Notes: generated by a model not told the origin, from the letters alone. A DNA stretch of 64,000 bases from Gemmatimonadota bacterium (GCA_003222115.1 QHUL01000050.1:17086-81085), one strand, 5' to 3'; counted from the first letter of the stretch, positions 7,705-59,401 are shown. Numbers and translations: made by a program.

Positions 7705-7714
7705 AACTAACACC

Positions 7715-7795: not shown

Positions 7796-7800
7796 GCCTT

Positions 7801-22600: not shown

Positions 22601-22744
22601 GGCGGCCACGACGGTGGTCACCGACTCGAGGGTCGAGCCGAACGCCTGATAGAGGAGCCGGACCCAGAGGAGCTCATACACGAGCCCGGTGGCCCCGGAG
22701 AGGAAGAACAGGAGGCTGTAGCCGCGGGCGGCGCTAAAACGCAT
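19667..22744 (-). CDS. Fused multi-pass membrane (MFS-like) / spermidine-synthase-like / TPR protein, 1025 aa
   Basis: The N-terminal ~480 aa is polytopic membrane sequence. The middle has an aminopropyltransferase-like fold ([11 protein letters not shown]...VVEIEP...[15 protein letters not shown]). The C-terminus is TPR-like. I recall the family name 'fused MFS/spermidine synthase' from memory. Confidence 0.8.
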
Positions 22745-35270: not shown

Positions 35271-36899
35271 ATGGCCGCTGAGCCCGTCGATGTGCTCGTC
35301 ATCGGCGGCGGGATCACGGGCGCCGGGATCGCGCGCGATGCGGCGCTGCGCGGCCTCCGCACGGCGCTTGTGGACAAGGGCGACTTCGCAGGCGCGACAT
35401 CGTCGCGCTCGTCGCGCCTCATCCACGGCGGTCTCCGCTATCTCGAGCAGTACGACTTCCATCTAGTGCGGGAAGCAAGCCGGGAGCGGCGCCTGCTGCT
35501 CGACCTGGCGCCACACCTCGTACGGCCGCTCGCATTCCTGTTCCCCGTCTACCGCGGGGCGCGGGTGCCGGCCTGGCGGCTGCGGGCGGGGATGTGGCTG
35601 TACGACCTGCTCGCCGCCTTCCGCAACGTGCGCCTGCACCGCTGGCTGGGCCGGCGCGCCGCGCTCAAGGCCGAGCCGGGACTGCGGGAGCGGGGCCTGG
35701 TGGGAGCGGCGGTCTACTACGACGCGCAGACCGACGACGCGCGGCTCGTCCTGGCCGCCATCCGCGGCGCGGCCCAGGCCGGCGCTCTGGTCGCGAACTA
35801 CACCGAGGTGACGAGCCTCGTCCGTCGCGATGGCCGCGTGCGGGGCGCGACGGTGCAGGACGCGCTCACCGGCGAGGCCCGCACCGTGCGTGCCTTGATC
35901 GTGGTGAACGCGACGGGACCCTGGGTGGATGCCCTGCGCCGGCTCGACGACCCGCAGGCCCCGCCGCTGCTCCGGCTCACGAAGGGCGCACACGTCGCCG
36001 TACCCCGCGGGCGGATCGGGAATGCGCACGCGGTGACCCTTACGTCGCCGATCGATGGGCGGGTGATGTTCGTGCTCCCCTGGGGGGACCTGAGCTACGT
36101 CGGGACCACCGACACGGACGACGTCGCCCCGCCCGACGACGTGCGGGCATCCGGGAGCGACGTCGTCTATCTGCTGCGGTCGGCGAACGCGTTCTTTCCG
36201 CAGGCCCGCCTCGCCCCGCACGACGTGATCTGCAGCTGGGCGGGTCTGCGGCCCCTGCTCGCTCCCGAGCGCGAGGTCGCCGCGTCGGCGGTCTCCCGGG
36301 AGCACCGCATCGTCGAGAGCGCCAGCGGCCTGATCACCATCGCCGGCGGCAAGCTCACCACCTTCCGCGTCATGGGGCGCGACATGGTCGACCGCGTGGC
36401 CCGGCGGCTGCACGAGCTCGATGGCCGGCCGATCCCGCGCCGGCCCCCCACCGATCGCGTGCCGCTGCCGGGAGGCGAGACGGCGGATCTCGCCGTGCTC
36501 GTAGAGGCGGCCCGTGCCCGCGAGGTCCCCGAGCCTACGGCGCGCCATCTGGTGCAGGCCTACGGAAGCGAAGCGCCGGCGGTGCTGAACCTCGTGGAGC
36601 GCGACCGCGCCCTCGGGAAGCCGATCATCCCCGGCCGGCCGGAGATCTGGGCCGAAGTGAGGCACGCGGTGGAGCGGGAGATGGCGCTGCGGCTCGGGGA
36701 CGTGCTCATGCGCCGGCTCCACCTCTTCTCAGAGACCCGGGACCAGGCCGTCCCCGCCACGAGTGCCGTCGCGGACCATCTGGGTGAGCTGCTCGGCTGG
36801 GATGCGGCCCGCCGGTCCGAGGAGATCGCCGACTACGCGAAGCAGGTGGCGCAGTCACGGGCGTACCTGAAAGAGGTGGCCAGGCTGAGCAAACCCTGA
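35271..36899 (+). CDS. glpD: FAD-dependent glycerol-3-phosphate dehydrogenase
   Basis: It has DVLVIGGGITGAGIARDAALRGL and SSRSSRLIHGGLRYL, plus a C-terminal GlpD alpha-helical domain. The start may lie further upstream (TTG at 35217). Confidence 0.88.
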   Translation: MAAEPVDVLVIGGGITGAGIARDAALRGLRTALVDKGDFAGATSSRSSRLIHGGLRYLEQYDFHLVREASRERRLLLDLAPHLVRPLAFLFPVYRGARVPAWRLRAGMWLYDLLAAFRNVRLHRWLGRRAALKAEPGLRERGLVGAAVYYDAQTDDARLVLAAIRGAAQAGALVANYTEVTSLVRRDGRVRGATVQDALTGEARTVRALIVVNATGPWVDALRRLDDPQAPPLLRLTKGAHVAVPRGRIGNAHAVTLTSPIDGRVMFVLPWGDLSYVGTTDTDDVAPPDDVRASGSDVVYLLRSANAFFPQARLAPHDVICSWAGLRPLLAPEREVAASAVSREHRIVESASGLITIAGGKLTTFRVMGRDMVDRVARRLHELDGRPIPRRPPTDRVPLPGGETADLAVLVEAARAREVPEPTARHLVQAYGSEAPAVLNLVERDRALGKPIIPGRPEIWAEVRHAVEREMALRLGDVLMRRLHLFSETRDQAVPATSAVADHLGELLGWDAARRSEEIADYAKQVAQSRAYLKEVARLSKP

Positions 36900-37610
36900 T
36901 CACGCGCCCCGCCGCGCTTCGCTCGCGCCGATGGCCTCCCGCAGTGCGGCCCGCGCGAGCAGCCGGGTCGAATCGAGCGCCGGGAGAGGGGCCTCGCCGT
37001 CGCGTACGAGGAGCGGGATCTCGGTGCACCCCAGGACCACGGCATCACAGCCGCGCCGGCCCAGCGCCGCGATCACGTCATGGAAGTACGCCCGCGACGC
37101 CTCGAGGAAGCGGCCGTTCACGAGCTCATCCATAATGATCGCGTCGATGCGCGCGCGCTCCGGAGGCTCCGGGGTCAGGGTCGCGATCCCGGCGGGTTGG
37201 AGCGCCTCGGGGTAGACGGGGCCCTCCATCAAGTACCGCGTGCCCAGGATCCCGAGCCGTCGGAAGCGGCGGCCCTCGGCTTCCCGAGCGACGACCCGGC
37301 CGATGTGGAGCCAGGGGATGGGGGATTCGGGCTCCACGAGCGCGAACGCCTGATGGACCGTGTTGTCCGGGCTGATGGCGAACGCGGCGCCGACCTGCGC
37401 CGCTTTGCGGGCGGACGAGAGCATCAAGTCCGCGACGCCACGCCAGTCGTGGCGGCGGATGTGACGCATGTAGTCGGCCAGGGGATGCGTATGCATCGTG
37501 ACTTCGGGATGGCTGTGCTCCCCCATCACGCGCGCGCCCTCGGTGCAGATCGTGCGATAGCACAGCGCCGCCCCCTCGGCGCTCACCCCCACGATCCCGA
37601 TGTGCTTCAC
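36900..37610 (-). CDS. Asp/Glu/hydantoin-racemase-superfamily protein with an atypical active site (first Cys replaced by Asp)
   Basis: This is the C-terminal 236 aa of track ORF 36900..38621. The GTG at 37610 follows GGGGGAGGG. GAAFAISPDNTVH aligns to the canonical GADFIxxPCNTAH, and the second motif VVLGCTEIPLL is intact. Confidence 0.75.
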   Translation of the reverse strand: MKHIGIVGVSAEGAALCYRTICTEGARVMGEHSHPEVTMHTHPLADYMRHIRRHDWRGVADLMLSSARKAAQVGAAFAISPDNTVHQAFALVEPESPIPWLHIGRVVAREAEGRRFRRLGILGTRYLMEGPVYPEALQPAGIATLTPEPPERARIDAIIMDELVNGRFLEASRAYFHDVIAALGRRGCDAVVLGCTEIPLLVRDGEAPLPALDSTRLLARAALREAIGASEARRGA

Positions 37611-37668
37611 CCCTCCCCCTCCCGCGGGCCCCTTCCCCTCTCCGCCCTCGTCCTCCCCTCTACCCCGT
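37611..37668 (-). other. Polypurine, G-run-rich intercistronic tract (G-quadruplex / multi-SD candidate) upstream of the racemase-like gene
   Basis: The minus strand reads GGGGTAGAGGGGAGGACGAGGGCGGAGAGGGGAAGGGGCCCGCGGGAGGGGGAGGG, followed by the GTG start. Confidence 0.6.
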
Positions 37669-37672
37669 CGTT

Positions 37673-38692
37673 TCACCGCCAACCCCACAGCGACCTTACG
37701 TAGTCGTGCAACACGAGGAACTTCTCGAACAGCACCACGCCCTTGCGCTTCCGGCCGAACTCGCCGAACAGCTCCCGCAGCCGGCCCCGCCGGACGACGT
37801 ACACGCGAAACGTCTCGGCGAAGTCCTCCTGGGGGTGAGTCGCCGCGTAGGCGGTGACGTAGTTCGGCAGGGTCGTCGTCACGTGGCGCATCTCGAAATC
37901 CACCCACTTCGAGTCCGACACGCGGTAGGCCTTCCGCACCTCGCCGAAGGCGCGCCGGAACCGCCCGGTGCGGGTCAGGCGCCAGTTGTGGAACAGGAAC
38001 GAGTGCCCGAGCTCGTGCAGGATGAGTCCGGTGAGCATGGTCCAGGAGATCTCGTCGCGCCGACGTTTCCCCGTCACGTAGCGCCGCTCGATCTCGATCA
38101 CCTTGGGCGAGCTGTGCGTGACGCCCGACACGCCCGGCCGCAGCAGCACGCGATAATGCCAGTCCCTGACCCGCGTCGTCACGAGCAGCCGGCGGGCGCG
38201 CGCGAGTGCCTGGCGGACCAGGTCCTGGCCGGTGGAATCCTCCCCGCACCAGGGACACCAGTTCATCCAGTCGTTTACGCCCTTGTTGCAGTGGGGGCAG
38301 ACGTTCTGGAACTCGTCGTGGCGCCACTTCTCGGGCCGGCCGCACCAGGGGCAGTAGCGCATCGGATACATCACGCCGCCGCCGCAGCCCCAGCGGCAGC
38401 GGCGGTGGAACTTGAATCCCTTCGGCGCCTTGAGCGGCGCGGCGCTCGAGTCCCGGTCGGCGATGTCGCGCCCGCACCACGGGCAATGGGAGAAGCTGTC
38501 CGAGACGACCCAGCCGCAGTAGTAGCACTCGGCCCCGGTCTCCCGCGTGACGTCCCGCCACTCGAGCCGGCGCCCGCAGTCGGAGCAGTACGACCAGAAC
38601 CGATCGAGCTCCGCCCGGCACGTCGGGCAGCGAAGCTCGGGCGTGGGCACCTCGCGGTGCCGGCGGCGCGCGGCCCTAGCGGACCTGGTCAC
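37673..38692 (-). CDS. Multi-zinc-ribbon protein with a C-terminal HExxH putative zinc metallopeptidase domain
   Basis: There are four CxxC...CxxCG ribbons: CPTCRAELDRFWSYCSDCG, CYYCGWVVSDSFSHCPWCG, CRWGCGGGVMYPMRYCPWCG and CPHCNKGVNDWMNWCPWCG. These are followed by LILHELGHSF and HPQEDFAETF. That resembles the 'putative zinc-binding metallopeptidase' family, which normally has a single N-terminal ribbon. Confidence 0.7.
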   Translation of the reverse strand: MTRSARAARRRHREVPTPELRCPTCRAELDRFWSYCSDCGRRLEWRDVTRETGAECYYCGWVVSDSFSHCPWCGRDIADRDSSAAPLKAPKGFKFHRRCRWGCGGGVMYPMRYCPWCGRPEKWRHDEFQNVCPHCNKGVNDWMNWCPWCGEDSTGQDLVRQALARARRLLVTTRVRDWHYRVLLRPGVSGVTHSSPKVIEIERRYVTGKRRRDEISWTMLTGLILHELGHSFLFHNWRLTRTGRFRRAFGEVRKAYRVSDSKWVDFEMRHVTTTLPNYVTAYAATHPQEDFAETFRVYVVRRGRLRELFGEFGRKRKGVVLFEKFLVLHDYVRSLWGWR

Positions 38693-39686
38693 GCTTCATC
38701 GCCTCGTCCACGATGCGCTGGATGAACTCGTCGTACGACAGGCCCGCCTTCTCGGCGGCGTTCGCCATCTCGTGCTCGAACGCGAGGAACGGGTTCGGAT
38801 TCACCTCCAGCACGTATACCTCGTCGTCGTGGGTCAACCGCAGGTCAACCCGTCCGTAGTCCTGCAGCCACAGCGCGTGAAAGGCCGTGGCGCAGAGGTC
38901 CCCGATCTTCGCGGTCAGGTCGTCCGCCAGGCCCTTCGCGAACACGTTCTTGATGCGCTTCCGCTTGCGGTACTCCTCGTCCCATTTCGCCTTGTAGGTG
39001 GCGATGCGCTGCTCCGCTGCCTCCGCCTCGCCGAACGTCATCTCGACGATCGGTAACACCTGCAGCTTGTCGTTGCCGAGCAGGCCGACGTACAGCTCCC
39101 GTCCTTCGATGAGCTCCTCCACGATCGCCGCCTGGTTGAACTTCTCGTGGATGAACTTCACCCGGTCCGCCAGGCTGCCGTCGTCCTCGACCACCGATGC
39201 CTGGGCGATGCCGATCGACGCGTCCTCGAGCAAGGGCTTGACGATCAGCGGGAAGCGGAGCTCCGAAGGCCGCAGCGGCTTCTCGCCGGGGTGGAACTCG
39301 GCGAAGGCAGGGACACGGATGCCGTGGTACGCGAGGATCTTCTTCGTGAGCGATTTGTTGCGCGCGACCAGTAGCCCGGTGGGCGACGAGCCGGTGTAGC
39401 GGTAGCCGTGCATCTCCAGCACCGCGGCGAGCCCATACTCGTGGTGGGCGCGCCCCCGGAACGCCTCGCAGCCGTTGAAGACGAGCTTCGGCTGGAACCC
39501 GGCGAGGCGATCGAGCAGCGGCGGGAGCGCCTCGTGCACGCCCACCATCAACACGTCGTGCCCCTTGGCGACGAGCGCCCGCCCCACGTCGTACTCCGCC
39601 TCCTCGACCTTGGTCTCGATCGCCTTCTTGTAGTCCGCGTCGCTCCAGTCGGGATGCTGGGTGTCGAACAGGACGGCGATCTTCAT
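38676..39686 (-). CDS. ATP-grasp ligase of the D-alanine--D-alanine-ligase-like family (substrate unknown)
   Basis: This is the C-terminal 336 aa of track ORF 38676..40904. The sequence runs MKIAVLFD...KLVFNGCEAF...RYTGSSP...ARNKSLTKKIL...FPLIVKPLLEDASIGI...ELIEGRELYVGLLG...GRVDLRL...YVLEVNPNP. Its ATG overlaps the MFS stop as ATGA. Confidence 0.8.
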   Translation of the reverse strand: MKIAVLFDTQHPDWSDADYKKAIETKVEEAEYDVGRALVAKGHDVLMVGVHEALPPLLDRLAGFQPKLVFNGCEAFRGRAHHEYGLAAVLEMHGYRYTGSSPTGLLVARNKSLTKKILAYHGIRVPAFAEFHPGEKPLRPSELRFPLIVKPLLEDASIGIAQASVVEDDGSLADRVKFIHEKFNQAAIVEELIEGRELYVGLLGNDKLQVLPIVEMTFGEAEAAEQRIATYKAKWDEEYRKRKRIKNVFAKGLADDLTAKIGDLCATAFHALWLQDYGRVDLRLTHDDEVYVLEVNPNPFLAFEHEMANAAEKAGLSYDEFIQRIVDEAMKRDQVR

Positions 39687-41311
39687 GCTTTCACCCGCGC
39701 CATGTCCCGCGCTACCGTCCGCAACGCCACCAGGATGACGAGGCCGCCCACCAGCCCGACCGAGGGCAACAGCAGCATCGCGGGGCGCAACCCGAAGCGG
39801 TCGGACAGGTAACCGACGAGCGGCGGCGCGATGGCGTCGCCCGCGAGGTGGGAGAACAACAGGAAGGCGCCCAGCACCGAGCCGCGCACGGCAGGCGGCA
39901 CCACGTCCAGGATGACGGCCGAGAGCGGGCCGTTGTACCACGTGTAGAGGAAGAACGTCGCGAACAACAGCGGCACGAACCAGCGCAGCCCCTCGACGAG
40001 CAGCAATGCCGCGCACACGGGGCCCCCCAGCACGAACCCGGCTCCCGACACGATCACCCGCCCGCCGGGCCAGCGCCCCAGCAGCCAGTCCCCCACGCGC
40101 CCCCCGAACAGCCCGCCGAGCGCGCCGCCGGCGAGCCCCCAGATCCCGAACTCCCGGCCGACGCGCCCGACGGAGAACCCGTGCACCCGTTCCATGAAGC
40201 TCGGGGCCCACGCGATCAGCCCGTTCACCGCGAACGTCACCAGGGAGCCGCCCACGAACATCCAGATCAGGGTCGGCGTGCGCAGCACCGTGGCGGCGGC
40301 TTGGAGGAAGTCCTCGAACGCGGTCGCCGCCACCACGGTGGCCTCGGTCGTGCGCCGGATGGCGATGGGCACCAATCGCATCACCGTCCACACCACGCCG
40401 ACCGTCACGAAGCCGCCGAACACCGCCGTGTCCACGCCCGACGGAAGGCGCTGGAACAGCGCCATCACACCGCTGACGGCGGCGCCCGCAAGCGTGAGGC
40501 CCGCGAGCGGCAGCGCCGGGCGGACCAGGTTGCGGACGCCGCTGTCGTACCAGCGGGCGAGGGTGGCCCAGACGGACGCCGGCGCCTGCCGCTGGGGCTC
40601 GCGCAGCCGCGAGGCGAGGAGCGCGAGCACGAGCCCCGGTGCGCCCATCGCGATGAACGCGGTGCGCCAGCCGTAGCGCTCCGCCAGCACCCCGCCCAGC
40701 CAGATGCCGAGCACGCCCCCGAACGCCATGCCGACCGAGTAGACCCCGATGGCAAAGGCGCGACGCCGCCCGCGGAAGAATTCCGCGATCAATGCCTGGG
40801 CCGCGGGCCCGTAGCCCGCCTCCCCCACGCCCACCATCGCCCGGCACACGAGGAGTTGCCCGAAGCCCCTCACCGCGGCACCGAGTGCCGTGAACGCGCT
40901 CCACAGCCCCACCCCGAAGGCGATGACCGCGCGACGCGACTTGAGGTCGCCCACGACACCAAGCGGCAGCGCCGCGAGCGACAGCACGATCACGTACGCC
41001 GAGCCCAGCCAGCCGAGCTCGTGGTCGGTCAGCGCGAGCTCGCGCTTCAGCGGCTGGAACAGCGCGAAAACGACGTTGCGGTCGGTGTAGTTGAGGAGGT
41101 TGATCAGCGTCAGCAGCCCGAGGGCGTAGACGGCGTACGCCCTCGACTGCTTGGGGTCGGAGCCGGGCCTAGGGCTGGCGCCCGACAGGCGTCGCCTCCG
41201 CGCGGGCGTCGCGGTCGGCCTTCGCTTCCTGGTACGCCTCGGTGAGCTCGCGGAGCATCTCGTCGCGCTTGTGGTACAGCCGCTTGAGGCGGCGCGGCTT
41301 GCGCTTGGCAA
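39683..41311 (-). CDS. MFS transporter (Spinster-like); start codon unresolved
   Basis: It has 12-TM-like hydrophobic organisation and the run [19 protein letters not shown]...GDLKSRR. The only canonical in-frame start is the TTG at 41311, which gives a 143-nt overlap with the upstream gene. A CTG at 41188 would give a normal N-terminus. Confidence 0.75.
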
Positions 41312-42308
41312 GCGCGTAGGCGGCGAGAATCGGGAAGCCGACCGTGTTGTCCAGGTAGCACACGACGGTATCGGGGAGCTTCTCCGGGTCGACCTTCCCC
41401 CAGCTCACCGCCTCGGAGGGCGTCGCCCCCGACAGTCCGCCGGTGTCGGGGCGGGCGTCCGTCATCTGGAGATAGTAGTCGTGTCCCTTCTCACCGATCC
41501 CCAGCACCTCCTGAATCTGCGGTTCGGTCTGGAGCACGAAGTTCTTGGGACTCCCCCCGCCGATGATCAACACGCCGCTCTTGCCGCCGTGGGTCTTGGC
41601 GTGGAACACGACGGCCGAGGTCTCGTTCACGTCGGCGCTCACGTCGAAGCGGAGCTGCGAGCCCGTCAGTGCCTGCTCCGCCACGTTCATCCCGATCGAG
41701 GAGTCCCCCGGAGAGGAGGTGTAGATCGGCACGCCGCACTCGTGGGCCACGCCCAGCACCGACTTGCGCCCGATCCCCAGGGCCTGCTCGCGCTCGCGCA
41801 CGTAACCGCCCAGCAGGTAGTGGTATTCCGCCGTGCTCATCGGGCGCTGGAACTCGGGTCGCGCCGAGACCTCGCGGATATAGGCGTCGGTGGAGAGCAG
41901 CACCTGGTAGTCGAAGAAGATGTCGTAGATGCGGACGACGCCCTCTTCGCGCAGCTCCACATCGTCCGCGAAGGGCGTGCCCTTGTGCATCGTGAGGCCG
42001 AGCCCGAAGTGGGAGTCGTGATACAGGTTCGCGCCCGTCGATACGATCCAGTCGACGAACCCCGCCTCGATGAGGGGGATCATGGTGGACATGCCGAGCC
42101 CCGCCGGCGTCATCGCACCGGTCAGGCTCATCCCGACCGTGACGTCCTCCGCGAGCATTCGCTCCGCGAACAGGCGACAGCCCTCGGCCAGCCGGCCCGC
42201 GTTGTAAGCCAGGAACGCGTTGTCGACGAGCTCGGTAACCGTTTCCTTGCCAGTGATCGGCCTGGGGTCGATACGCGGGCCGCGCAGGTAGTCCTTGCGT
42301 GTCGTCAT
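41169..42308 (-). CDS. Deoxyhypusine synthase-like / homospermidine synthase-like protein
   Basis: Motifs seen are [35 protein letters not shown] and SEAVSWGK (catalytic-Lys motif). The ATG at 42308 overlaps the LOG stop as ATGA. Confidence 0.85.
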
Positions 42309-43054
42309 CGGCTCTCCACCGCAAAGGATTCGGTGCGGCGGGCGCGCGCCTTGACGCAGCGGCGCACCGCGTCCTCGGGGTCGTCGGTCACGTGAAACAG
42401 CTCCAAGTCCGCCGTGTCGATCTTCCCCTCCCCTGCCACCCGCTCCCGCAGCCATTCCACGAGGCCGGCCCAGTAGGCCTTGCCGAACAGGATGACAGGA
42501 AAATGTTTCACTTTTCCCGTCTGGATGAGCGTCAGCGCTTCGAACAGCTCGTCCATCGTCCCGAAGCCGCCCGGGAAAACGATGAACGCGGTCGAATACT
42601 TCACGAACATCGTCTTGCGCACGAAGAAATAGCGAAAGTTGATCGCGCGCTCAACGTAGGCGTTGATCCCCTGCTCGAACGGCAGCTCGATGTTGCAGCC
42701 GATCGAGAGCCCGTTCCCCTCCTGGCACCCGCGGTTCGCCGCCTCCATGATACCGGGACCGCCCCCCGTGATGACGGGGAACCCCTCGCGGGCAAGCAGA
42801 CGTGCCGTCACGACCGCCCGCTCGTAGAACGGGTCGTCGGCCGGCGTGCGCGCGGAGCCGAAGATCGTGACGGCGTTGTGGACGTCGGCGAGAGTGTCGA
42901 ACCCTTCCACGAACTCGCCCAGGATGCGCAGCACCCGCCACGGGTCCGTGCGTGTGAATCCCCGCCGCTCCGCTTGCGGGGCGGACGTGAGGAGGCGTTC
43001 GTCTTCAGTGACCGGCGCGCGTTGCGAGCCGCTCGAGCGCTGCGACATGGTCAT
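42305..43054 (-). CDS. LOG-family (TIGR00730) Rossmann-fold nucleotide phosphoribohydrolase-like protein
   Basis: Motifs seen are [23 protein letters not shown] and the hallmark [12 protein letters not shown]. Confidence 0.88.
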
Positions 43055-44186
43055 CCTGCACGTTATAGAAGAATGGGGAGAGGCGCACGTGCCCGGGCCG
43101 CGCGTCCGCGACGATCCGCGCCTCGGCGAGCGCGCGCACCTTGGCCGCCGGATCCACCGCGGGGAGCATCACGATCCCGGAGCGCTGCTGCGGGTGCGCC
43201 GCGACCTTGGGCTGGAAGCCTCGCTCACGGGCGCGGGCGATGAGGTCCTCCGCCAGCGCCCCGGTGACCGCTCGGATCGCCGGCACCCCGATCTCATCGA
43301 CGTAGTCGAGCCCGCCGAGCTGAGCGTAGATGGCGGCGAGCGCCGGCGTGCCGAGCTCGAAGCGCCGCGCGTCGTCGTGAAACTCGAGCCGTCGGGGGTC
43401 GAAGGCGAACTGGTCCCGGTGCCCGAACCACCCGGCGACGCCCGGCATCAGGCGGCGCGCCAGGTCCTCCCGCGCGTAGAGGAACACCACCCCCGGGCCG
43501 CCGAGCAGCCACTTGAGGCCGCCCGCGGTGAGGAAGTCGACCCCGCTCGCGTGCACATCCACCGGTACCTGCCCCACCGACTGGTAGGCGTCGATCAGGC
43601 AGAGCGCGCCGCTCGCGTGGGCAGCCTCGGCCACGGCGGCGATATCCTGGATCGCGCCGCTCGTGAAGTAGACGTGGGACGTCGCCACGAGCGCGGTGCG
43701 CTCGTCCACCGCGCGCGCGATCGCTTCCACGGGCACGGTGACCTGATCCGGACTCTCGACCACGACCAGCTCGATCCCGCGCGCCCGCTTGGCGAGCCAC
43801 TGGTAGGCGACGGTGGGGAAGTCGAGCGAAGTGACGACGACCCGGCGGCGCTTGCCATAGTCCAACGCCTCCGCCACCGAGGCGAGCGCAACGGAGATGC
43901 TCGGGCCGAGGGCGATCTCCTCGGGCGTCGCGGCGATCACGCGCGCGTAGCGACGGCGCAACTCCGCCAGCGCGGCCCACCACACGTCGTACCAGGCGGA
44001 CGCCCCTCGCTCCTGCCAGAGATCGAGGAACTCGGCGATGCGCCGGCGAGTCCGCTCCCCCAGCGCGCCCAGCGAGCAGGTATTGAGGTAGATCTTGTCC
44101 CGGAAGATCGGGAACTCGCCCCGATAGTGGGCGAGCGGATGGGCGCCGGCCTGGCGGGTCGCCGTGAGGCCACTTGCGAGCGTCAT
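43005..44186 (-). CDS. Class V aminotransferase-fold PLP-dependent enzyme (kynureninase-like)
   Basis: The sequence runs FPIFRDKIYLNTCSLGAL...LWQERGASAWYDVWW...DAYQSVG...FLTAGGLKWLLGGPG. It overlaps the LOG start by ~50 nt. Confidence 0.75.
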   Translation of the reverse strand: MTLASGLTATRQAGAHPLAHYRGEFPIFRDKIYLNTCSLGALGERTRRRIAEFLDLWQERGASAWYDVWWAALAELRRRYARVIAATPEEIALGPSISVALASVAEALDYGKRRRVVVTSLDFPTVAYQWLAKRARGIELVVVESPDQVTVPVEAIARAVDERTALVATSHVYFTSGAIQDIAAVAEAAHASGALCLIDAYQSVGQVPVDVHASGVDFLTAGGLKWLLGGPGVVFLYAREDLARRLMPGVAGWFGHRDQFAFDPRRLEFHDDARRFELGTPALAAIYAQLGGLDYVDEIGVPAIRAVTGALAEDLIARARERGFQPKVAAHPQQRSGIVMLPAVDPAAKVRALAEARIVADARPGHVRLSPFFYNVQDDHVAALERLATRAGH

Positions 44187-45808: not shown

Positions 45809-47014
45809 TCACCTTCTCCCCCCGGCCAGCCGCGCCGCCTCCGGCCGGCTCCTGAGCGCCAGCATCGCCCACACCCCGCACACCGGGCCCAGTGCCAGCA
45901 CGCTCATGCTCCAGCGCCAACCGATGCGACTGGCTACCGCCGGCAAGAGATAGATCGTCACGCAGGTGAGCAGAAACCCGAGACTCGTCTGCAGCGTGAG
46001 CGCCGTGCCGACGTGGTCGGCCGGCGCGAGCTCGCTCACGGCCGTGGAAAACTGGGCCGAGTCGGCCACGACCGTCACGCCCCAGACGAGGAGGAGCGGA
46101 ACCAGCGCCCCAAGCGGGCGCCCGAACATCGCGCCGGCGGCCAGCGCGCACGCGCCCGAGATCACCATGGCGCCACTGGTCACCACCGTGCGCCCCCACC
46201 GGTCGGCGTACCGCCCGCCCAGCCAGCACCCGACCGCTCCACTCCCCACCACCGCGAACGTCAGCAGCGCCGGGAGTGCGCCGCCCGCCGCGCCGCCCCC
46301 GCGCGCCTGCTCGCTCGCCGCGATGAACACGGCCATCCAGGTCCACATCGCGTACAGCTCCCACATGTGTCCGAGGTAGCCGAGGTTCGCGAGCGTGAGC
46401 GCGCGGTCGCGCAGGATCCGGGGCACCGCGCGCCACGTGAACGCGGGCGCGGGCGCCGCATACGGTCCGTCGTGCGGCACCACCAGCACGAGGCCCGCGC
46501 CGACCCACGCGCTCGCCGCGGCGGCACCGAGCACCGCACGCCACATGTCGCCCGGCACGGACCAACGCACCAGGTGCGGCAGCGCCGACCCTACCGTGAG
46601 CGCGCCCACGAGCACGCCGATCGCCCAGCCGCGCGCCTCTCGGAACCAGCCCGCCGTCAGCTTCATGCCGGGCGGATAGACCCCCGCGAGCGCCGCCCCG
46701 GTCAGCAACCGCAACGTGATGGCCAGGCCCGCCGTGGGCGCCAGCGCCACGCCGACCGTCGCGAGCCCCGCGATCACCGCGCACCCGGCGATCAAGCGCC
46801 GCGCGGACCAGCGGTCGCTCAGCGTGAGCACCGCCGACACGAGCGCGCCGGCGACGAAGCCCAGCTGCACGGAGATCGTGAGCCACGCCGTCCCCACCCC
46901 GCCCAGACCCCAGCGCGCCGCCAGGACCGGCGCGACGGCCGACGCGCTGAACCACGGCGCCATCGCGAGCAGCTCCGCGGCCGCGAGCACCGCGAGGACG
47001 CGACGCGGCGTCAA
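45809..47014 (-). CDS. MFS transporter
   Basis: It is a 401-aa polytopic protein with an MFS-like 6+6 TM layout. Its start overlaps the Nif3 stop by 4 nt. Confidence 0.8.
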   Translation of the reverse strand: MTPRRVLAVLAAAELLAMAPWFSASAVAPVLAARWGLGGVGTAWLTISVQLGFVAGALVSAVLTLSDRWSARRLIAGCAVIAGLATVGVALAPTAGLAITLRLLTGAALAGVYPPGMKLTAGWFREARGWAIGVLVGALTVGSALPHLVRWSVPGDMWRAVLGAAAASAWVGAGLVLVVPHDGPYAAPAPAFTWRAVPRILRDRALTLANLGYLGHMWELYAMWTWMAVFIAASEQARGGGAAGGALPALLTFAVVGSGAVGCWLGGRYADRWGRTVVTSGAMVISGACALAAGAMFGRPLGALVPLLLVWGVTVVADSAQFSTAVSELAPADHVGTALTLQTSLGFLLTCVTIYLLPAVASRIGWRWSMSVLALGPVCGVWAMLALRSRPEAARLAGGRR

Positions 47015-47763
47015 AGGCCGGTGGGATGGTCGAGGAACACCCAGGGCAGCCCGAAGCGCTGGTGGAGGTGTTCGGCCAGCGCTTTGACGCCCACCGTCTC
47101 TGTGGCGTAATGACCCGCGTAGAAGACGTTCAGGCCGAGCTCCTCGGCATCCAAGTACGTGTGGTGGGCTCCCTCACCCGTGATGTAGGTGTCCAATCCC
47201 GCCGCCGCAGCCTGGCCGATCAGTGACCCCGCGCCTCCCGTCACGATGCCGACGCGCCCGGTGCGCGCCGGGCCGAACGCCATCAGGCGCGGCGCCGACC
47301 CGAGCAACTCGTGGAGTCGCTCCCGCAGCTGCACCCGCTCCACGTCGAGCTCCCCCCAGACGCCGATCGTGACGCCGTACTCCTCGCCGAACTCGCCCAG
47401 CAGGCGCACCCCCACCTGCCGAGCGAGCACCGCGTTGTTCCCGACCTCCGGGTGCCGATCGAGCGGCAGATGCGCGCTGTAGACGGCGATGTTGCATTGC
47501 AGCAGGCCAGCAACCCGGCGGTAGGCGGGACCGGTCAGGGGACGAGGCCCACCCCAAAAGAGGCCGTGGTGCACCAGCAGCAAGTCGGCCCGCGCCTCGG
47601 CGGCTAGCCGTACGGTCGCCTCACAGAGATCCACGGCGGCTGCGACGCGAGTGATCTCTCCGCCGTTCGCCAGCTGCAGCCCATTGAGCGCCTGCGGGGC
47701 GTCGGGGACCTCTCGGACTCGCAGGTAGTCATCGAGATACGCGGTCACGTCCCCTAGGCGCAT
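47011..47763 (-). CDS. Nif3-like dinuclear metal centre protein (YbgI / GTP cyclohydrolase 1 type 2 family)
   Basis: The sequence runs NGLQL...VDLCEATVRLAAEARADLLLVHHGLFW...AHLPLD...GHYATE. Confidence 0.88.
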   Translation of the reverse strand: MRLGDVTAYLDDYLRVREVPDAPQALNGLQLANGGEITRVAAAVDLCEATVRLAAEARADLLLVHHGLFWGGPRPLTGPAYRRVAGLLQCNIAVYSAHLPLDRHPEVGNNAVLARQVGVRLLGEFGEEYGVTIGVWGELDVERVQLRERLHELLGSAPRLMAFGPARTGRVGIVTGGAGSLIGQAAAAGLDTYITGEGAHHTYLDAEELGLNVFYAGHYATETVGVKALAEHLHQRFGLPWVFLDHPTGL

Positions 47764-47903
47764 CGGAATCCGCAGCGCAGCACGCCGCGTGAGGCGCGCT
47801 TACAGTATAGCGACATTATCGCGGCACATTAGGGACAGTGACAGCCAATTAAGGGGAGATTCCCACATGACCGATTGCGTAACTCACTGCTGCACAGCGG
47901 ACT

Positions 47904-47937
47904 AAAATTTCCACACGCAACTCGGGGCGCCATGTGG
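47904..47937 (-). terminator. Weak intrinsic-terminator candidate after the bactofilin gene
   Basis: The minus strand reads CCACAUG-13 nt-CGUGUGG, a 7-bp stem including one G-U pair, followed by AAAUUUU. It starts 18 nt after the stop codon. Confidence 0.35.
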
Positions 47938-47954
47938 ATATGTGGCCATGGAGC

Positions 47955-48353
47955 TCAGCGGGAGCCCGAGTGCTCCGCTTCCTTCTCCAACGCACCCTCC
48001 CCCATCCGCACCACGCCGTTGATCTCGCCCCCCTCCTGCACCTGCAGGCGCCGCGACGCGAGGTCACCGTGGACGACGCTGGCCGCCTGAATCTCGATCC
48101 GCTCCTCGGCGCGGACACTGCCGCGCACTTCCCCGCCAATGATGGCTTCCTTCGTGATGACGTCCCCCTCTACTTCCCCGCCCTTCGCCACGAGCACCTG
48201 GCGGCCGGCTCGCACCGTGCCCACGACCGTTCCTTCGATCTTCACGACCCCCTCCGCGACGATGTCGCCTTCCACCCGCATGCCGGCCCCGATGATCGAG
48301 AGTCCGGCTTCGGACTCCGGCGCGCCGTGCCCTTTCTCGGTGAAGATCGCCAT
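47955..48353 (-). CDS. Bactofilin (polymer-forming cytoskeletal protein, CcmA/BacA family)
   Basis: The beta-helical repeat pattern is present: SIIGAGMRVEGDIVAEGVVKIEGTVVGTV...VEGDVITKEAIIGGEVRGSVRAEERIEI...VHGDL. Confidence 0.88.
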   Translation of the reverse strand: MAIFTEKGHGAPESEAGLSIIGAGMRVEGDIVAEGVVKIEGTVVGTVRAGRQVLVAKGGEVEGDVITKEAIIGGEVRGSVRAEERIEIQAASVVHGDLASRRLQVQEGGEINGVVRMGEGALEKEAEHSGSR

Positions 48354-48354
48354 G

Positions 48355-49149
48355 TCAATTCTCCTGTTTCACGACAGTGAGAGGGTCGAGCGACCGTCCG
48401 TCACGGCGGATTTCGAAGTGCAGGTGCGGAGCCGTGGATCGCCCCGAGGTTCCGGACAGCGCGATCACCTGCCCTGCCTGCACCGAGTCTCCCTCGCGTA
48501 CCAGCAACCGCGAGGCATGCCCGTACATCGTCTCATACCCTTGGGTATGGCGCAAGAGCACGAACAGGCCGTAGGCGGGATCGATGCCCGCGGCCGTGAC
48601 CATCCCCCCGCCGGCCGCGCGTACCGGCGTGCCCTCGGGCACCGCGATGTCCACGCCCGGATGCGACTCCGCCGCGTCGCCCGGGCGCACCTGGCCTCGT
48701 GTGACGAAGCCGGCCACGTCGAGCGGCCAATGTGAAGGTTGCGACGGCCCGGGTTCGTACCGCGGCGACGCGGCTGGTGAGCGCGCGCGCACCGCGACCG
48801 CGCGCAGCAACTCTACGCCCAGCTTCGCGCTGGTCCGCTCGGGCGGCGCTCTGACCCCGAGCAGCTGGCGCAGGGATTGATAGTTCTCCTCGGCACGATT
48901 CAGGGCCGCGGCGAGCTGCTGCACTTGACCGTTCTCCTCGCGCAATCGCGTCACCTGCCGCTCCAGCCCGGGCACGCGCGCCGCGGCCCGGCTGATGGGC
49001 CCCGCGAAGGCGAAGAACAGGACCACCAGGAGGGCGACCACCAGGGCCCCCCACTTCCCTGCCTCGAACGCCCACACCGGCACCCGATACTGCCGCGAGT
49101 CGAGATCGCCATCCGTGTGAATGACGATCGTCACGCCGCGGTCCTTCAT
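48355..49149 (-). CDS. M23-family (LytM-type) metallopeptidase with an N-terminal membrane anchor and coiled coil
   Basis: Motifs seen are HPGVDIAVPEGTPV and YGHASRLLV...GTSGRSTAPHLHFEI. A TM helix is present (WGALVVALLVVLFFAF). Confidence 0.88.
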   Translation of the reverse strand: MKDRGVTIVIHTDGDLDSRQYRVPVWAFEAGKWGALVVALLVVLFFAFAGPISRAAARVPGLERQVTRLREENGQVQQLAAALNRAEENYQSLRQLLGVRAPPERTSAKLGVELLRAVAVRARSPAASPRYEPGPSQPSHWPLDVAGFVTRGQVRPGDAAESHPGVDIAVPEGTPVRAAGGGMVTAAGIDPAYGLFVLLRHTQGYETMYGHASRLLVREGDSVQAGQVIALSGTSGRSTAPHLHFEIRRDGRSLDPLTVVKQEN

Positions 49150-50033
49150 CCGTCGAACGGGGCTCCGAGGAAGACCTCGAGCAGGCGCGCCAGGTCCTCG
49201 TTCGAGTAGAACGCGACGTGGATCTGGCCTTTCCCTCTCGCGCGCAACGTGACGCGGACGTCGGTGCCGAGCCGGCGGCGCAGCGCCTCTTCGATGCGCC
49301 GCACTTCGGGGACCTGCCCCACTCCCCGCTTGAGCCGCGGGCGCCGCTCCGGTGCGCGCCCTCCGCGCACCCGGTCTTCGACCTCGCGCACCGAGAGCCC
49401 CTGCGCGACCGCCTCCCGCGCGAGCGTCGTCGCGACGCGCGGATCCTCGAGGGCGAGGAGCGCGCGTGCATGACCCACGCTGAGCTCGCCGCCATGGAGC
49501 ATCGCCAGCACCGCCTCAGGCAGCTTCAGCAGCCGGAGCGCGTTGGCCACCGTAGAGCGATCTCGCCCCACGGCGTCCGCCACGTCTTGCTGCGTGAGCT
49601 TGAACTCCGCGATGAGGCGGTCGTAGCCGCGTCCTTCGTCGACGGGCGACAGATCGTCGCGTTGCAGATTCTCGATCAGGGCGAGCGTGAGCACCGTGCG
49701 GTCGTCCACCTCGCGCTTCACCGCCGGCACGCGCTCCCAGCCGAGCGCCTGGCAGGCGCGCAGTCGGCGCTCGCCGGCGATGAGCTCGTACCCGCCGCTC
49801 GCCGCGGTTCGCACCACGACGGGCTGCAGCAGCCCTGCCTGCTGGATCGAAGACTTCAGCTCCTCGAGCGAGGCCGCGTCCACGTCCTGCCGCGGCTGGA
49901 ACGGGTTGGGGCGGATCTCCCGCACGGGCAGGTCGACGAGACTTCCCTCGCGCTCGGCCTCCTCGCGGGTGGGGCCGAGGAGGGCCTCGAGCCCACGGCC
50001 GAGGCGACGGCGTCCTAATGTGGTCTCTGTCAT
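49146..50033 (-). CDS. parB: Chromosome partitioning protein ParB
   Basis: The sequence runs IRPNPFQPR...GLLQPVVV...YELIAGERRLRA...LIENLQRDDLSP, followed by an HTH. Confidence 0.95.
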   Translation of the reverse strand: MTETTLGRRRLGRGLEALLGPTREEAEREGSLVDLPVREIRPNPFQPRQDVDAASLEELKSSIQQAGLLQPVVVRTAASGGYELIAGERRLRACQALGWERVPAVKREVDDRTVLTLALIENLQRDDLSPVDEGRGYDRLIAEFKLTQQDVADAVGRDRSTVANALRLLKLPEAVLAMLHGGELSVGHARALLALEDPRVATTLAREAVAQGLSVREVEDRVRGGRAPERRPRLKRGVGQVPEVRRIEEALRRRLGTDVRVTLRARGKGQIHVAFYSNEDLARLLEVFLGAPFDG

Positions 50034-50851
50034 GCAGGCACCTCCGGCAGCGGTTCAGCAGCAGACGGGGCAGGGGACGGTGCGCGCTCCACCCGGTGGA
50101 TCAGCTCCTGGGCCAGCGCAAGATAGCTCTTCGCGCCCACGGACTGGACGTCATACAACAGGATCGGTTTACCGAAGCTCGGCGCCTCCGCCAGGCGGAC
50201 GTTCCGTGGCACCGTGATATCGAACATCTTCGGCCCGAGGTATTCCTTCGCTTCCTCAGCCACTTGCTTGCAGAGGTTGAGCCGCGCGTCGAACATCGTC
50301 AGCAGCACTCCATCGATGGCGAGCGCCGGGTTGAAATTGCGCTGCACGAGCTTGATTGTGTTGAGAAGCTGGGACAGTCCCTCCAACGCGTAGTACTCGC
50401 ACTGAATCGGGATCACGACGCTATCGGCCGCGACGAGCATGTTGAGCGTGATGAGGCCGAGCGACGGCGGGCAGTCGATGATGACGTAGTGGTACTCCTC
50501 CCGCACGTCGTCGAGCGCCCGCCGCATGCGGGATTCGCGCGCCGATACATTGACGAGCTCGAGCTCCGCCCCCACAAGATCCTGGGTGGCCGGCACGAGA
50601 TCGAGTAACGGGAAGTGCACGTGCGGGAAGCGTGTGCCGGAGAGCGGCCGACCGTCGAGCAGCGCGTCGTAGAGGGAGTGGCGGATGCGATCGCGCTCGA
50701 TACCAACGCCGCTCGTCGAGTTCGCCTGCGGGTCCGCGTCAATCAGGAGCGTCTTGCGCTCCGCCGCCGCGAGGGAGGCGGCGAGGTTCACCGCAGTGGT
50801 GGTCTTGCCGACCCCACCCTTCTGATTGGCGATCGCGACAACTCGGGACAT
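50030..50851 (-). CDS. parA: Chromosome partitioning ATPase ParA/Soj
   Basis: It has the deviant Walker A NQKGGVGKTTT, plus LLIDADPQ and YVIIDCPPSLG. Confidence 0.95.
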   Translation of the reverse strand: MSRVVAIANQKGGVGKTTTAVNLAASLAAAERKTLLIDADPQANSTSGVGIERDRIRHSLYDALLDGRPLSGTRFPHVHFPLLDLVPATQDLVGAELELVNVSARESRMRRALDDVREEYHYVIIDCPPSLGLITLNMLVAADSVVIPIQCEYYALEGLSQLLNTIKLVQRNFNPALAIDGVLLTMFDARLNLCKQVAEEAKEYLGPKMFDITVPRNVRLAEAPSFGKPILLYDVQSVGAKSYLALAQELIHRVERAPSPAPSAAEPLPEVPA

Positions 50852-50943
50852 GCCCTATAACTCATTAGCGGACAATTGGTTACAACAAAACTCGCTAAGT
50901 GGCCTACAAATATAGCGTAAGGGAGGGGGGAAGGAAAGCGGCC

Positions 50944-50959
50944 AGTTTCACGTGAAACA
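50944..50959. promoter_or_regulatory. parS: parS centromere-like site
   Basis: AGTTTCACGTGAAACA matches the consensus TGTTTCACGTGAAACA at 15/16 positions, with a perfect 14-bp palindromic core. It lies 5 nt after the mnmG stop and 93 nt upstream of parA, in an A/T-rich spacer. Confidence 0.85.
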
Positions 50960-50963
50960 CCCT

Positions 50964-52835
50964 CTAGGCCACATGCCTTCGTCGCCAGCGGGCGGACTCC
51001 ACCACGAGATTATGCAGATCGCTCGGCGAGACGCCCGGGATCCGGGCCGCCTGCGCTAGGGAGGTGGGGCGCACCACGTCGAGCTTCTGTCGCGCCTCGG
51101 TCGCCAGACTCACCAGTTCGAGGTACGGCAGATCACCCGGCAGCGCGAACGATGCGAGTTCGGCAAGGCGCCGGGCGGCTTCCCGCTCGCGAACGAGGTA
51201 CCCCTCGTACTTGAGCTCGATCTCGGCCGACCTCACCACGTCAGCCTCGACCCGCGGCTCCGCCCCCGCGGCGCTGAGCAGCGCGCCGAGCGATGCGCCC
51301 GGTCGCTTCACGACCGACGCGATGCGCTCCGGCTCCACGAGTTTCGTTTCGGTCGGCGCGAGCGCCGCCGCCGCCTGCGCGGGAGTGATCGTCGTCTCGC
51401 GAGCGGCCACCAGCAGTCTTTCCTCCTCTCCCAGCCGCGCCTCCGCCACCCGAAGCTCGCTTGCCGTCAGCAGGCCCAGCGTCTCCGCCAGCGGCAGCAG
51501 CCGCCGCAGCGCGTTGTCCTGGCGCAGCAACAGCCGGAACTCCGAGCGCGACGTAAACAACCGATACGGCTCGTCTACGCCTCGCGTCACCAAGTCGTCT
51601 ACGAGGACCCCGATGTAAGCGTCGTCGCGCCCCAGCACCACCGGCTCCTGCCCGCGGATGCGCCGCACCGCGTTGATTCCTGCCACCGCTCCCTGTGCCG
51701 CCGCCTCCTCGTAGCCCGTCGTGCCGTTGATCTGCCCGGCAAACCACAGGTGCTCGAGCGCCTTGGTCTCGAGCCAGGGGGTGAGCTGGGTCGGGGGATA
51801 GTAGTCGTATTCGATCGCGTAGCCTGGCCGCGTCAGCTTCGCCCGCTCGAGGCCCGGCACGGCGTGCAGGAACTCGACCTGCACGTGGACGGGCAGGGAA
51901 GTGGACAGCCCGTTCACGTACAGCTCGGCCGTGTCGAGCCCTTCTGGCTCCAGGAACACCTGGTGACGCTTCGCGTCCGGGAACTTCACGACTTTGTCCT
52001 CGACCGACGGGCAGTAGCGCGGACCGCGTCCGCTAATCGCCCCGCCGTACAACGCCGACTCCTTCAGGTGCCGCTCGATGATCGCCTTCACCGGCTCGCC
52101 AGCCCACGTGATCCAGCAAGGCAGCTGGCGCGGCCGCTCCAGGCGCTGGTAGAACGAGAACCGGTAGTCATCCTGGTCACCGTCTTGCCGTTCCACTTTG
52201 GACCAATCGACGGTGCGCCCGTCCACTCGCGGCGGGGTCCCGGTCTTGAAGCGCGACACTGTAAGTCCAAGTGCGGCAATGTGTTGTGCAATATCGACTG
52301 CCGGTTGATCCCCCGCGCGGCCGGCCGGGATCGTCGTATCTGTGCCGACGTGAATCCGACCGCGCAGGAACGTGCCCGCCGTGATGATCACCGCCCGCGC
52401 AGTGAACCGGCGTCCATCGGTCGTTTCCACTCCTCCCACCTGGTCACCATGGACGACCAGCCGGGCGACCATCCCCTGGGTCAGATCGAGATCGCGGAAG
52501 CCCTCGACCAGCTCCCGTACCGCGCGGCGGTACAGCGTGCGGTCGCATTGCGCGCGCGGCGCCCACACCGCCGGGCCCTTGGAGCGGTTGAGCATGCGAA
52601 ATTGGATCGTCGCGCGGTCGGCGGCGCGACCCATCACACCGCCAAGCGCGTCGACCTCCCGCACCACCGTCCCCTTCGCGATCCCGCCGATCGCGGGATT
52701 GCAGGACATCTGACCGATGGTATCGAGGTTGGACGTGACGACGAGCGTGCGGGCGCCGAGCCGGGCGCACATGATGGCGGCTTCGGTGCCGGCGTGGCCG
52801 GCACCGACGATGAGGACCTCGTAGTCGAAGGGCAT
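50964..52835 (-). CDS. mnmG: tRNA uridine-5-carboxymethylaminomethyl(34) synthesis enzyme MnmG (GidA)
   Basis: It matches the family over its full length: YEVLIVGAGHAGTEAA...SCNPAIGGIAKG...GPRYCPSVEDK...QINGTTGYEEAAAQG. Confidence 0.96.
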   Translation of the reverse strand: MPFDYEVLIVGAGHAGTEAAIMCARLGARTLVVTSNLDTIGQMSCNPAIGGIAKGTVVREVDALGGVMGRAADRATIQFRMLNRSKGPAVWAPRAQCDRTLYRRAVRELVEGFRDLDLTQGMVARLVVHGDQVGGVETTDGRRFTARAVIITAGTFLRGRIHVGTDTTIPAGRAGDQPAVDIAQHIAALGLTVSRFKTGTPPRVDGRTVDWSKVERQDGDQDDYRFSFYQRLERPRQLPCWITWAGEPVKAIIERHLKESALYGGAISGRGPRYCPSVEDKVVKFPDAKRHQVFLEPEGLDTAELYVNGLSTSLPVHVQVEFLHAVPGLERAKLTRPGYAIEYDYYPPTQLTPWLETKALEHLWFAGQINGTTGYEEAAAQGAVAGINAVRRIRGQEPVVLGRDDAYIGVLVDDLVTRGVDEPYRLFTSRSEFRLLLRQDNALRRLLPLAETLGLLTASELRVAEARLGEEERLLVAARETTITPAQAAAALAPTETKLVEPERIASVVKRPGASLGALLSAAGAEPRVEADVVRSAEIELKYEGYLVREREAARRLAELASFALPGDLPYLELVSLATEARQKLDVVRPTSLAQAARIPGVSPSDLHNLVVESARWRRRHVA

Positions 52836-52856
52836 TGAGCAATAGTAGCGTACGCA

Positions 52857-52902
52857 GGCGGTAGTTCGGTAGGACTAGACGGATAGACGGCGAGACGGGT
52901 AG
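52857..52902. repeat. Array of about 6 tandem octamers (consensus RCGGNTAG), ~21 nt upstream of the mnmG start
   Basis: The units are GGCGGTAG TTCGGTAG (GACTAG) ACGGATAG ACGGCGAG ACGGGTAG. The array is the inverted partner of 53386-53417. Confidence 0.75.
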
Positions 52903-52915
52903 CGGTGCCCAGGGT

Positions 52916-58630: not shown

Positions 58631-58634
<4 letters not shown>
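57288..58634 (-). CDS. sufD: Fe-S cluster assembly protein SufD
   Basis: It has a SufD-type N-terminus (PAWLKEMREAAIARFAELGFPTTKQEEWRFT) and a C-terminal beta-helix ending with VKCTHGSTVGPLD...LFYLRSRGL. Confidence 0.92.

Positions 58635-59397
<763 letters not shown>

Positions 59398-59401
<4 letters not shown>

Follow-up and report, generated by a model that had tools for sequence, protein, structure and literature searches.

A conserved Gemmatimonadota operon around a SpeY homologue is probably a mosaic that holds an uncharacterised ATP-grasp ligase and zinc-ribbon peptidase pair

Background

RimK adds C-terminal glutamates to ribosomal protein S6 and the RimB protease removes them. ATP-grasp enzymes can also acylate polyamines, as glutathionylspermidine synthetase does, and Ddl-like ligases typically act on small molecules. 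Burnat et al. 2018 is reportedly named in connection with the homospermidine gene clusters of SpeY, the bacterial homologue of deoxyhypusine synthase (DHS). All bacterial SpeY proteins tested join two agmatines into N1,N9-bis(guanidino)homospermidine, which is converted to homospermidine by a ureohydrolase, or by an iminohydrolase plus an amidohydrolase, and speY usually clusters with the genes for arginine decarboxylase (ADC) and such a hydrolase, regarded as its obligate module (Li et al. 2026, J Biol Chem, PMC13625781). In this work we analysed a window of 64,000 nucleotides from a soil Gemmatimonadales bacterium (Gemmatimonadota; GCA_003222115.1 QHUL01000050.1:17086-81085; G+C about 70%), in which seven open reading frames (ORFs) on the minus strand at 36900-44186 follow each other with overlapping or abutting junctions. 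They encode a kynureninase-like enzyme dependent on pyridoxal 5'-phosphate (PLP), a LOG-family protein, a DHS-like protein, a major facilitator superfamily (MFS) transporter, a Ddl-like ATP-grasp ligase, a zinc-ribbon peptidase and a racemase homologue.

A preliminary description of this locus, made from the sequence alone, had proposed a single pathway for an amino-acid-polyamine or amino-acid-amine conjugate, or else for modifying a component of the cell envelope. Its polyamine enzyme and its coupled, exporter-like MFS protein stand, and so does its remark that the gene set matches no described pathway; the assignment of all seven genes to one pathway is not supported. The operon is, in our judgement, likely to be a mosaic whose three parts each have a history of their own: a polyamine module of PLP enzyme, LOG, SpeY and MFS, a ligase-peptidase unit, and a racemase-like gene at the variable end.

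Conservation and loss of genes in related genomes

Our comparison set consisted of about 90 related genomes. More than 400 relatives of the peptidase were found in species-representative genomes, at least 421 genomes encoding it, and 13 proteins of the window were mapped by tblastn onto 80 loci (L001-L080) carrying the best of these relatives (peptidase identity 71-98%). These best 80 all belong to metagenome-assembled genomes of Gemmatimonadales or Gemmatimonadota, except for one contig labelled Krumholzibacteriia, which is probably mis-binned. The nearest relative, L001 (QHUR01000033.1), is near-identical to the window, and the loci L083-L085 are from the window's own species. In a 50% clustering of 1.8 billion proteins, 35 peptidase representatives reached E 1e-30, nearly all of them pieces or frameshifted forms of this one Gemmatimonadota protein.

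Most of the 80 loci show the order queG, then PLP enzyme, LOG, SpeY, MFS, ATP-grasp and peptidase, then a variable region and glpD-fadA-fadB. The six-gene order is kept in at least 57 species-level genomes, and L100, with a peptidase 69% identical, has it as well. The neighbourhood is thus conserved beyond the window's genome, but no more strongly than the unrelated flanks: queG and glpD-fadA-fadB hold positions as well conserved as those of the cluster genes. The adjacency within the cluster is therefore ordinary, general synteny.

Members of a single dedicated pathway should be lost together, and this is not the pattern observed, as the PLP, MFS, ATP-grasp and racemase genes were individually gained or lost. 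The ATP-grasp gene is missing in 10 of 73 informative loci, and a neighbour-joining tree of the peptidase implies that it was lost independently at least four times. The MFS gene is missing in three of 57 loci (L026, L028 and L074) and reduced to a remnant in L047, and the PLP gene is missing in three of 57 (L011, L026 and L074); in L074 only LOG, SpeY and the peptidase are left between queG and glpD. Where there is no ATP-grasp gene, MFS runs into the peptidase gene mostly through a clean 4-nt overlap, and in all of these genomes the peptidase retains its 16 cysteines and the HExxH...E residues.

The ligase-peptidase pair outside the clade

The ligase and peptidase genes also occur in distant Gemmatimonadota (peptidase 59-67% identity, orthologous ATP-grasp 52%), again overlapping, by 8-20 nt. 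In L081, L082, L093, L094, L095 and L101 the peptidase gene lies directly downstream of the ATP-grasp gene as an overlapping unit, and three contexts can be told apart. The pair is found within M48-purD-fpg-[pair]-uvrC-like in L081, L082, L093 and L095, near a mechanosensitive channel and unknown genes in L094, and beside a divergent amidase and domain-of-unknown-function (DUF) genes in L101. No DHS, LOG, PLP or MFS gene lies within 7-10 kb of the pair in any of the three. The occurrence of the pair in other contexts without polyamine genes nearby argues that the two genes form an autonomous unit, brought next to the polyamine genes a single time. Together with the repeated loss of the ATP-grasp gene beside an intact peptidase, these three contexts speak against the seven-gene pathway. 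Close full-length relatives of the pair are confined to Gemmatimonadota.

In the first context (about 4900-10100 in the coordinates of L081, L082, L093 and L095) the pair sits between fpg, which encodes a DNA glycosylase, and a uvrC_M/GIY-YIG-like gene, with all of these genes overlapping. Judged from this gene order, a link of the zinc-ribbon peptidase with DNA repair is conceivable; L094 and L101 do not show this context.

The ATP-grasp ligase and the zinc-ribbon peptidase

The ATP-grasp gene (38676-39686, minus strand) encodes a Ddl-like ligase of 336 amino acids (Dala_Dala_lig_C, 2.6e-27). All 25 Ddl/Van models of NCBIfam that were listed stayed below their cut-offs, the best being NF002378 with 124.3 bits against 243. 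In the alignment to E. coli DdlB (1iov), the D-Ala-binding positions are changed (S150A, Y216W, G276F, S281H and L282E) and the ATP/Mg residues K144, K215, R255, D257, E270 and N272 are retained. An identity as D-Ala-D-Ala ligase was rejected on account of these scores and replacements. The protein is probably active as a ligase, not for D-Ala-D-Ala, and the intact ATP/Mg site beside a remodelled acceptor site suggests that it forms an amide bond on some other substrate. RimK models gave 16-29 bits, below cut-off, and no GSP_synth or CHAP domain was found in the cluster by Pfam at E <= 0.01.

The peptidase gene (37673-38692, minus strand) encodes a putative gluzincin of 339 amino acids with four zinc ribbons (DZR and Peptidase_Mx, PF15887; 44.1 bits for a cut-off of 27). 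It has eight CxxC pairs, HELGH at residues 226-230 and EDFAE at 289-293, and none of the 22 key residues varies among 86 sequences. The protein lacks a signal peptide and has 16 conserved cysteines. An AlphaFold2 model computed from a 99-sequence alignment reached a predicted local distance difference test score (pLDDT) of 87.5 and a predicted template modelling score (pTM) of 0.81, and a Foldseek search of the Protein Data Bank (PDB) with this model gave weak matches only, the best being anthrax lethal factor. The model is consistent with a zincin fold without a close solved relative. No peptidase match was found in a plasmid collection or in viral contigs, and we found no description of the ATP-grasp/zinc-ribbon peptidase pair or of Peptidase_Mx in the literature.

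The four ribbons form an array at peptidase residues 22-149 (38246-38629, minus strand). The same array, of about 150 amino acids, recurs in rare, unrelated low-GC proteins of similar length, where it is fused to Prok-JAB, to Peptidase_C39 or to another Peptidase_Mx domain (P0170, P0189, P0203, P0212, P0222, P0226 and P0232); in P0393 and P0394 it is fused to Ser/Thr kinases. Its presence across JAB, C39 and Mx fusions suggests a targeting module with exchangeable hydrolase heads. A profile search with ten zinc-ribbon-array proteins from outside Gemmatimonadota returned seven matches, on short contigs. No ATP-grasp gene was present in the recovered contexts, those of P0170 and P0391 among them; in L096 the gene is solitary, and in L097 it lies among small ORFs. 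A metagenome scan with P0189, a distant zincin-type relative, gave one real locus, L086, also without ATP-grasp. There (L086:66-8987) P0189 lies downstream of three genes for dynamin-family GTPases, a coiled-coil protein and two small uncharacterised ORFs, and the locus may serve membrane remodelling or conflict and be unrelated.

The racemase-like gene

The last gene of the operon (36900-37610, minus strand) encodes a protein of 236 amino acids of the Asp/Glu-racemase superfamily, with 120.5 bits for TIGR00035 (cut-off 93.1). The word atypical, which had been applied to it, is apt: the first catalytic cysteine is replaced by Asp (SPDNT for xCNT), and the second site, GCTE, is kept. The gene was found in only two of the 80 loci, L001 and L007, and in the window's species (L083-L085). 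Its start at GTG 37610, for which automatic gene callers choose an upstream GTG, is backed by L007, where the protein shares this beginning, VKH(I/V)G, and its GTG overlaps the peptidase stop as GTGA.

In the window the two genes are separated by a G-rich polypurine spacer of 62 nt (37611-37672, minus strand; 85% purine, 63% G), correctly noted before, which holds the racemase Shine-Dalgarno sequence. Because L007 has the GTGA overlap without any spacer, this tract is a later insertion in the window's lineage. Across L001-L080 the stretch from the peptidase gene to glpD varies between 8 nt and 7.2 kb in length and is occupied by differing, unrelated genes, and it is therefore an insertion hotspot (36900-37672 in the window). 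Its cargo elsewhere includes genes for Tat-signal proteins and secreted proteins, for a methyltransferase and for a Nudix-like protein. To judge from this distribution the racemase-like gene is a recent, lineage-specific accessory insertion. Hence the analogy that had been drawn between this racemase and ATP-grasp gene and the ligation of D-Asp in Enterococcus falls away: the racemase gene is rare, sits in a hotspot and lacks one catalytic cysteine. At the far end, the stop codon of the convergent glpD (TGA, plus strand) directly abuts that of the racemase gene (TGA, minus strand) at 36897-36902 with zero spacer, which leaves no room for separate terminators.

SpeY, LOG and the PLP enzyme

The DHS-like gene (41169-42308, minus strand) scores 552.1 bits against NF001980, NCBI's homospermidine biosynthesis family for the bacterial DHS homologue (cut-off 450), and the match spans positions 1-349 of the 350 of the profile. 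The catalytic-lysine motif SWGK is found at residues 302-305 and the NAD-site motif GGGSPKN at 250-256, and identity is 81-99% across 66 loci. By these family features the protein is a bona fide SpeY. The 120 SpeY homologues listed by our search are all at least 86% identical and give no view beyond the clade. In the plasmid collection only cyanobacterial and Sphingomonas relatives of 30-33% identity were found, in ordinary contexts and without LOG; the Sphingomonas plasmid speY is adjoined by the usual type III PLP decarboxylase. The viral contigs gave no SpeY match. About 20 kb from SpeY, a gene at 19667-22744 (minus strand) encodes a 1025-residue protein in which residues 542-694 form a spermine/spermidine-synthase domain (PF01564); this neighbourhood may thereby hold a second polyamine enzyme.

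The LOG-family protein (42305-43054, minus strand; 247-249 amino acids) passes TIGR00730 with 149.6 bits (cut-off 96.35) and carries GGGPGIM and, at residues 161-169, PGGFGTMDE, in agreement with the PGGxGTxxE pattern of the family. Characterised LOG members of TIGR00730 are nucleotide phosphoribohydrolases. That the genes might be characterised orthologues with unrelated functions had been named as an outcome contrary to a shared pathway, and this is partly so, as the DHS-like protein passes NF001980 and LOG passes TIGR00730.

The PLP enzyme (43005-44186, minus strand; 393 amino acids) is a kynureninase-like member of class V (Pfam Aminotran_5, 1.6e-36). It remains below the cut-off of the kynureninase model TIGR01814 (107 bits against 246.4), its closest solved structure is the kynureninase of P. 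fluorescens (1qz9, E 4.5e-32), and the PLP-lysine motif GLKW lies at residues 223-226. We considered whether it could be the housekeeping SufS and ruled this out, the true SufS being encoded at 56059-57504. In PADLOC it showed generic DndA/SspA class-V similarity only, and no defence model matched the ATP-grasp, peptidase, SpeY, MFS or racemase proteins.

The MFS transporter and its CTG start

The MFS transporter (39683-41188, minus strand; about 501 amino acids, MFS_1 1.2e-50) most likely starts at a CTG within the 3' end of speY. For a full-length protein the sole canonical start would be TTG 41311, with an overlap of 143 nt, and this codon is not conserved. In related loci the MFS frame usually opens just 65-86 nt ahead of the SpeY stop, and in 42 of 64 loci not one ATG, GTG or TTG occurs in it upstream of the first conserved transmembrane segment. 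A CTG lies 14-26 nt (mostly 20) ahead of where the SpeY stop codon ends in 57 of the 64 loci, each time preceded by a motif resembling a Shine-Dalgarno sequence; in the window it is at 41186-41188 (minus strand), with GGAGG 6 nt upstream. The seven loci without the CTG all have an ATG or GTG close by (Fisher p 2.7e-4, a value that is indicative only because the genomes are related). The preliminary description had noted the overlap of MFS with the DHS-like gene, and it does exist; its most likely start is corrected here to CTG 41188. Given that the CTG is conserved and that ATG or GTG takes its place in the exceptions, the overlap is most likely 20 nt.

Automatic gene callers either shorten the MFS protein to 436 amino acids or extend it to TTG 41311. 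At this junction (about 41169-41190) the database protein P0271 (612 amino acids), 100% identical to the SpeY of the window, runs in frame past ATPVGR into MFS, which implies a 1-nt indel variant or an assembly error. P0271 had prompted us to consider a SpeY-MFS fusion by programmed frameshift, and this was rejected since the CTG, its Shine-Dalgarno motif and the compensating ATG or GTG codons explain the data.

Operon layout

The seven genes are co-directional on the minus strand, as the ORF layout and the Pfam and NCBIfam assignments bear out; the same assignments agree with the domain calls made earlier. They are bordered by the convergent glpD (plus strand, end at 36899) on one side and by the divergent queG side past 44186 on the other. 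The remaining overlaps that had been read from the sequence were also found: 50 nt between the PLP and LOG genes if LOG starts at ATG 43054 (44 nt from ATG 43048), an ATGA overlap of LOG with the DHS-like gene at 42305-42308, another of MFS with ATP-grasp at 39683-39686, and 17 nt between the ATP-grasp stop at 38676 and the peptidase GTG at 38692. In the related loci the PLP/LOG overlap is 38-50 nt in 58 of 58, and the ATP-grasp and peptidase genes overlap in 63 of 66. Similar overlaps join purD, fpg, ATP-grasp, peptidase and the uvrC-like gene in other Gemmatimonadota. Since the genes of the purD-fpg context overlap too, overlap is a property of these genomes and not evidence for a shared pathway. 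From their arrangement the seven genes are probably co-transcribed as one operon.

An Rfam scan of the locus gave nothing relevant. Elsewhere in the window (about 47000-53000 and 55600-61500) there are genes for NIF3 and bactofilin and a suf operon with SufB/D paralogues, and by correspondence with L083 the window also includes an M23 peptidase gene, parB, parA and mnmG (gidA). The presence of parB, parA and mnmG suggests nearness to the replication origin.

Discussion

If the operon is a mosaic, as we think likely, then its first part would be a polyamine module in which SpeY joins two agmatines to give the homospermidine precursor N1,N9-bis(guanidino)homospermidine, and the MFS protein, whose translation is coupled to that of SpeY, most likely carries this polyamine, its precursor or its product across the membrane. 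Family membership and the published biochemistry suggest diagmatine or homospermidine as the compound that SpeY would make here. The second part, the ATP-grasp and gluzincin module, would move and persist as a unit and would have come to lie beside the polyamine genes a single time, in the clade's ancestor. The peptidase, targeted by its zinc-ribbon array, may have a target in the cytoplasm on which it cleaves a peptide or amide bond, and perhaps the two enzymes have one amide bond or target in common. The third part would be the racemase-like gene.

Several points weigh against this interpretation. The sampling was anchored on the peptidase, so that its apparent constancy arises partly by construction, and the absence of SpeY around the pair in other contexts refers to flanks of 7-10 kb. 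The six-gene order with overlapping junctions persists across at least 57 species-level genomes, a persistence compatible with a functional link gained after the pair had moved in. Among the genes scanned within about 20 kb of SpeY there was no ADC and no ureohydrolase or iminohydrolase (the scan took in the window except for 3.4-5.8, 12.9-15.1 and about 48-53 kb, and 10 kb on either side in L083-L085); such genes may be encoded at other places in the genome. As these partner genes were not found nearby, the substrate and product of SpeY in this operon are deduced from family membership only. As regards a single operon, a scan of the locus for promoters and terminators returned signals at background level, none of them informative.

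The alternative that survives best is a cytoplasmic add-and-remove system for a macromolecule, comparable to RimK and RimB. The ligase would attach amino acids to a protein, or to some other target that the array recognises, the gluzincin would take them off again, and the adjacency to polyamine genes would be incidental. It can be seen as a refinement of the ligase-peptidase part of the mosaic, and we regard it as possible, with reservations. In four contexts the pair is kept with its two genes overlapping, the peptidase has 16 conserved cysteines and no signal peptide, and the fusion of the array to JAB and C39 heads in other phyla suggests a targeting module that carries heads cleaving peptide or isopeptide bonds. 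On the other hand, the peptidase is intact without an adjacent ligase in 10 genomes, the distant zinc-ribbon-array proteins have no ATP-grasp neighbour, and the ligase resembles Ddl, whose relatives typically act on small molecules, and not RimK.

A single pathway, in which SpeY makes a polyamine, the ATP-grasp ligase adds an amino acid (possibly a D-form made by the racemase), the peptidase trims or recycles the conjugate and MFS exports it, seems unlikely to us. The co-directional genes with their overlapping junctions, the six-gene order in most of 66 loci, the acceptor site remodelled relative to Ddl and the precedent of polyamine acylation by ATP-grasp enzymes would all suit it. However, the pair stands without nearby polyamine genes in three other contexts, ATP-grasp was lost at least four times while SpeY, LOG and an intact peptidase stayed, and the unrelated flanks are equally syntenic. 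Furthermore, no more than three lineages, namely L001, L007 and the window's species, have the racemase, which lacks one catalytic cysteine, and Pfam identified no GSP_synth or CHAP domain.

A combination of the mosaic with a shared function is conceivable but improbable: the pair would be a hitherto undescribed tag-and-untag system whose array recognises the target, recruited to the SpeY module in the window's clade, such that an amine derived from diagmatine or homospermidine is ligated to a cellular target or a metabolite and removed from it while MFS handles the free compound. That the pair was recruited to modify or use the SpeY product is a residual possibility to which the computations lent no support. 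Finally, a peptidoglycan-precursor system of the Ddl/VanX type, making and hydrolysing a D-Ala-D-X dipeptide, is very improbable although in both sequence and structure the ligase matches D-Ala-D-Ala ligases best and its partner is a zinc peptidase, because every Ddl/Van model is far below cut-off, none of S150, Y216, G276, S281 and L282 is kept, the peptidase is a zinc-ribbon gluzincin unrelated to VanX with a weak structural match to anthrax lethal factor, and there are no mur or fts genes nearby.

Under the mosaic interpretation, ligase and peptidase form an uncharacterised module of modest interest. In compact, high-GC Gemmatimonadota, overlaps and clade-wide gene order alone are no sign of a shared pathway, as housekeeping genes such as purD and fpg are just as tightly packed. 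Three leads follow from the analysis. The first is the conserved pair itself, with an array that recurs on JAB and C39 peptidases elsewhere, and the second is the unusual setting of SpeY, next to LOG, the kynureninase-like enzyme and an MFS transporter with a probable CTG start. The third is this conserved non-canonical CTG, which standard gene callers miss, so that the MFS gene is truncated or misplaced.

Comparison with known systems

The juxtaposition of a gene for a Ddl-fold ATP-grasp ligase with one for a zinc hydrolase recalls Ddl/DdpX and VanA/VanX; unlike VanA/VanX, the ligase described here fails the Ddl/Van cut-offs and the peptidase is a four-zinc-ribbon gluzincin and not of the VanX type. 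RimK/RimB is similar in that a ligase and a peptidase, both cytoplasmic, are co-encoded, but the present ligase is not of the RimK family, the peptidase is a zincin and not retropepsin-like, and it persists without the ligase in some genomes. The likeness to glutathionylspermidine synthetase/amidase is one of concept, as an ATP-grasp enzyme makes and a hydrolase breaks an amide bond near polyamine genes, whereas GSP_synth and CHAP do not occur here and the pair is also found away from polyamine genes. With Aslfm/Racfm of Enterococcus faecium, a D-aspartate ligase and its racemase, the operon shares the combination of ATP-grasp and racemase-superfamily genes; the racemase homologue here is lineage-specific, has Asp for one catalytic cysteine and is not co-conserved with the ligase. 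The described SpeY clusters are matched at the level of the enzyme, by an NF001980 score above cut-off, the SWGK lysine and the NAD-site motif. Those clusters combine speY with arginine decarboxylase and an agmatinase-like or iminohydrolase partner, which were not found within about 20 kb here; in their place SpeY is accompanied by LOG, the kynureninase-like enzyme and an MFS transporter that appears to be coupled to it through a CTG start.

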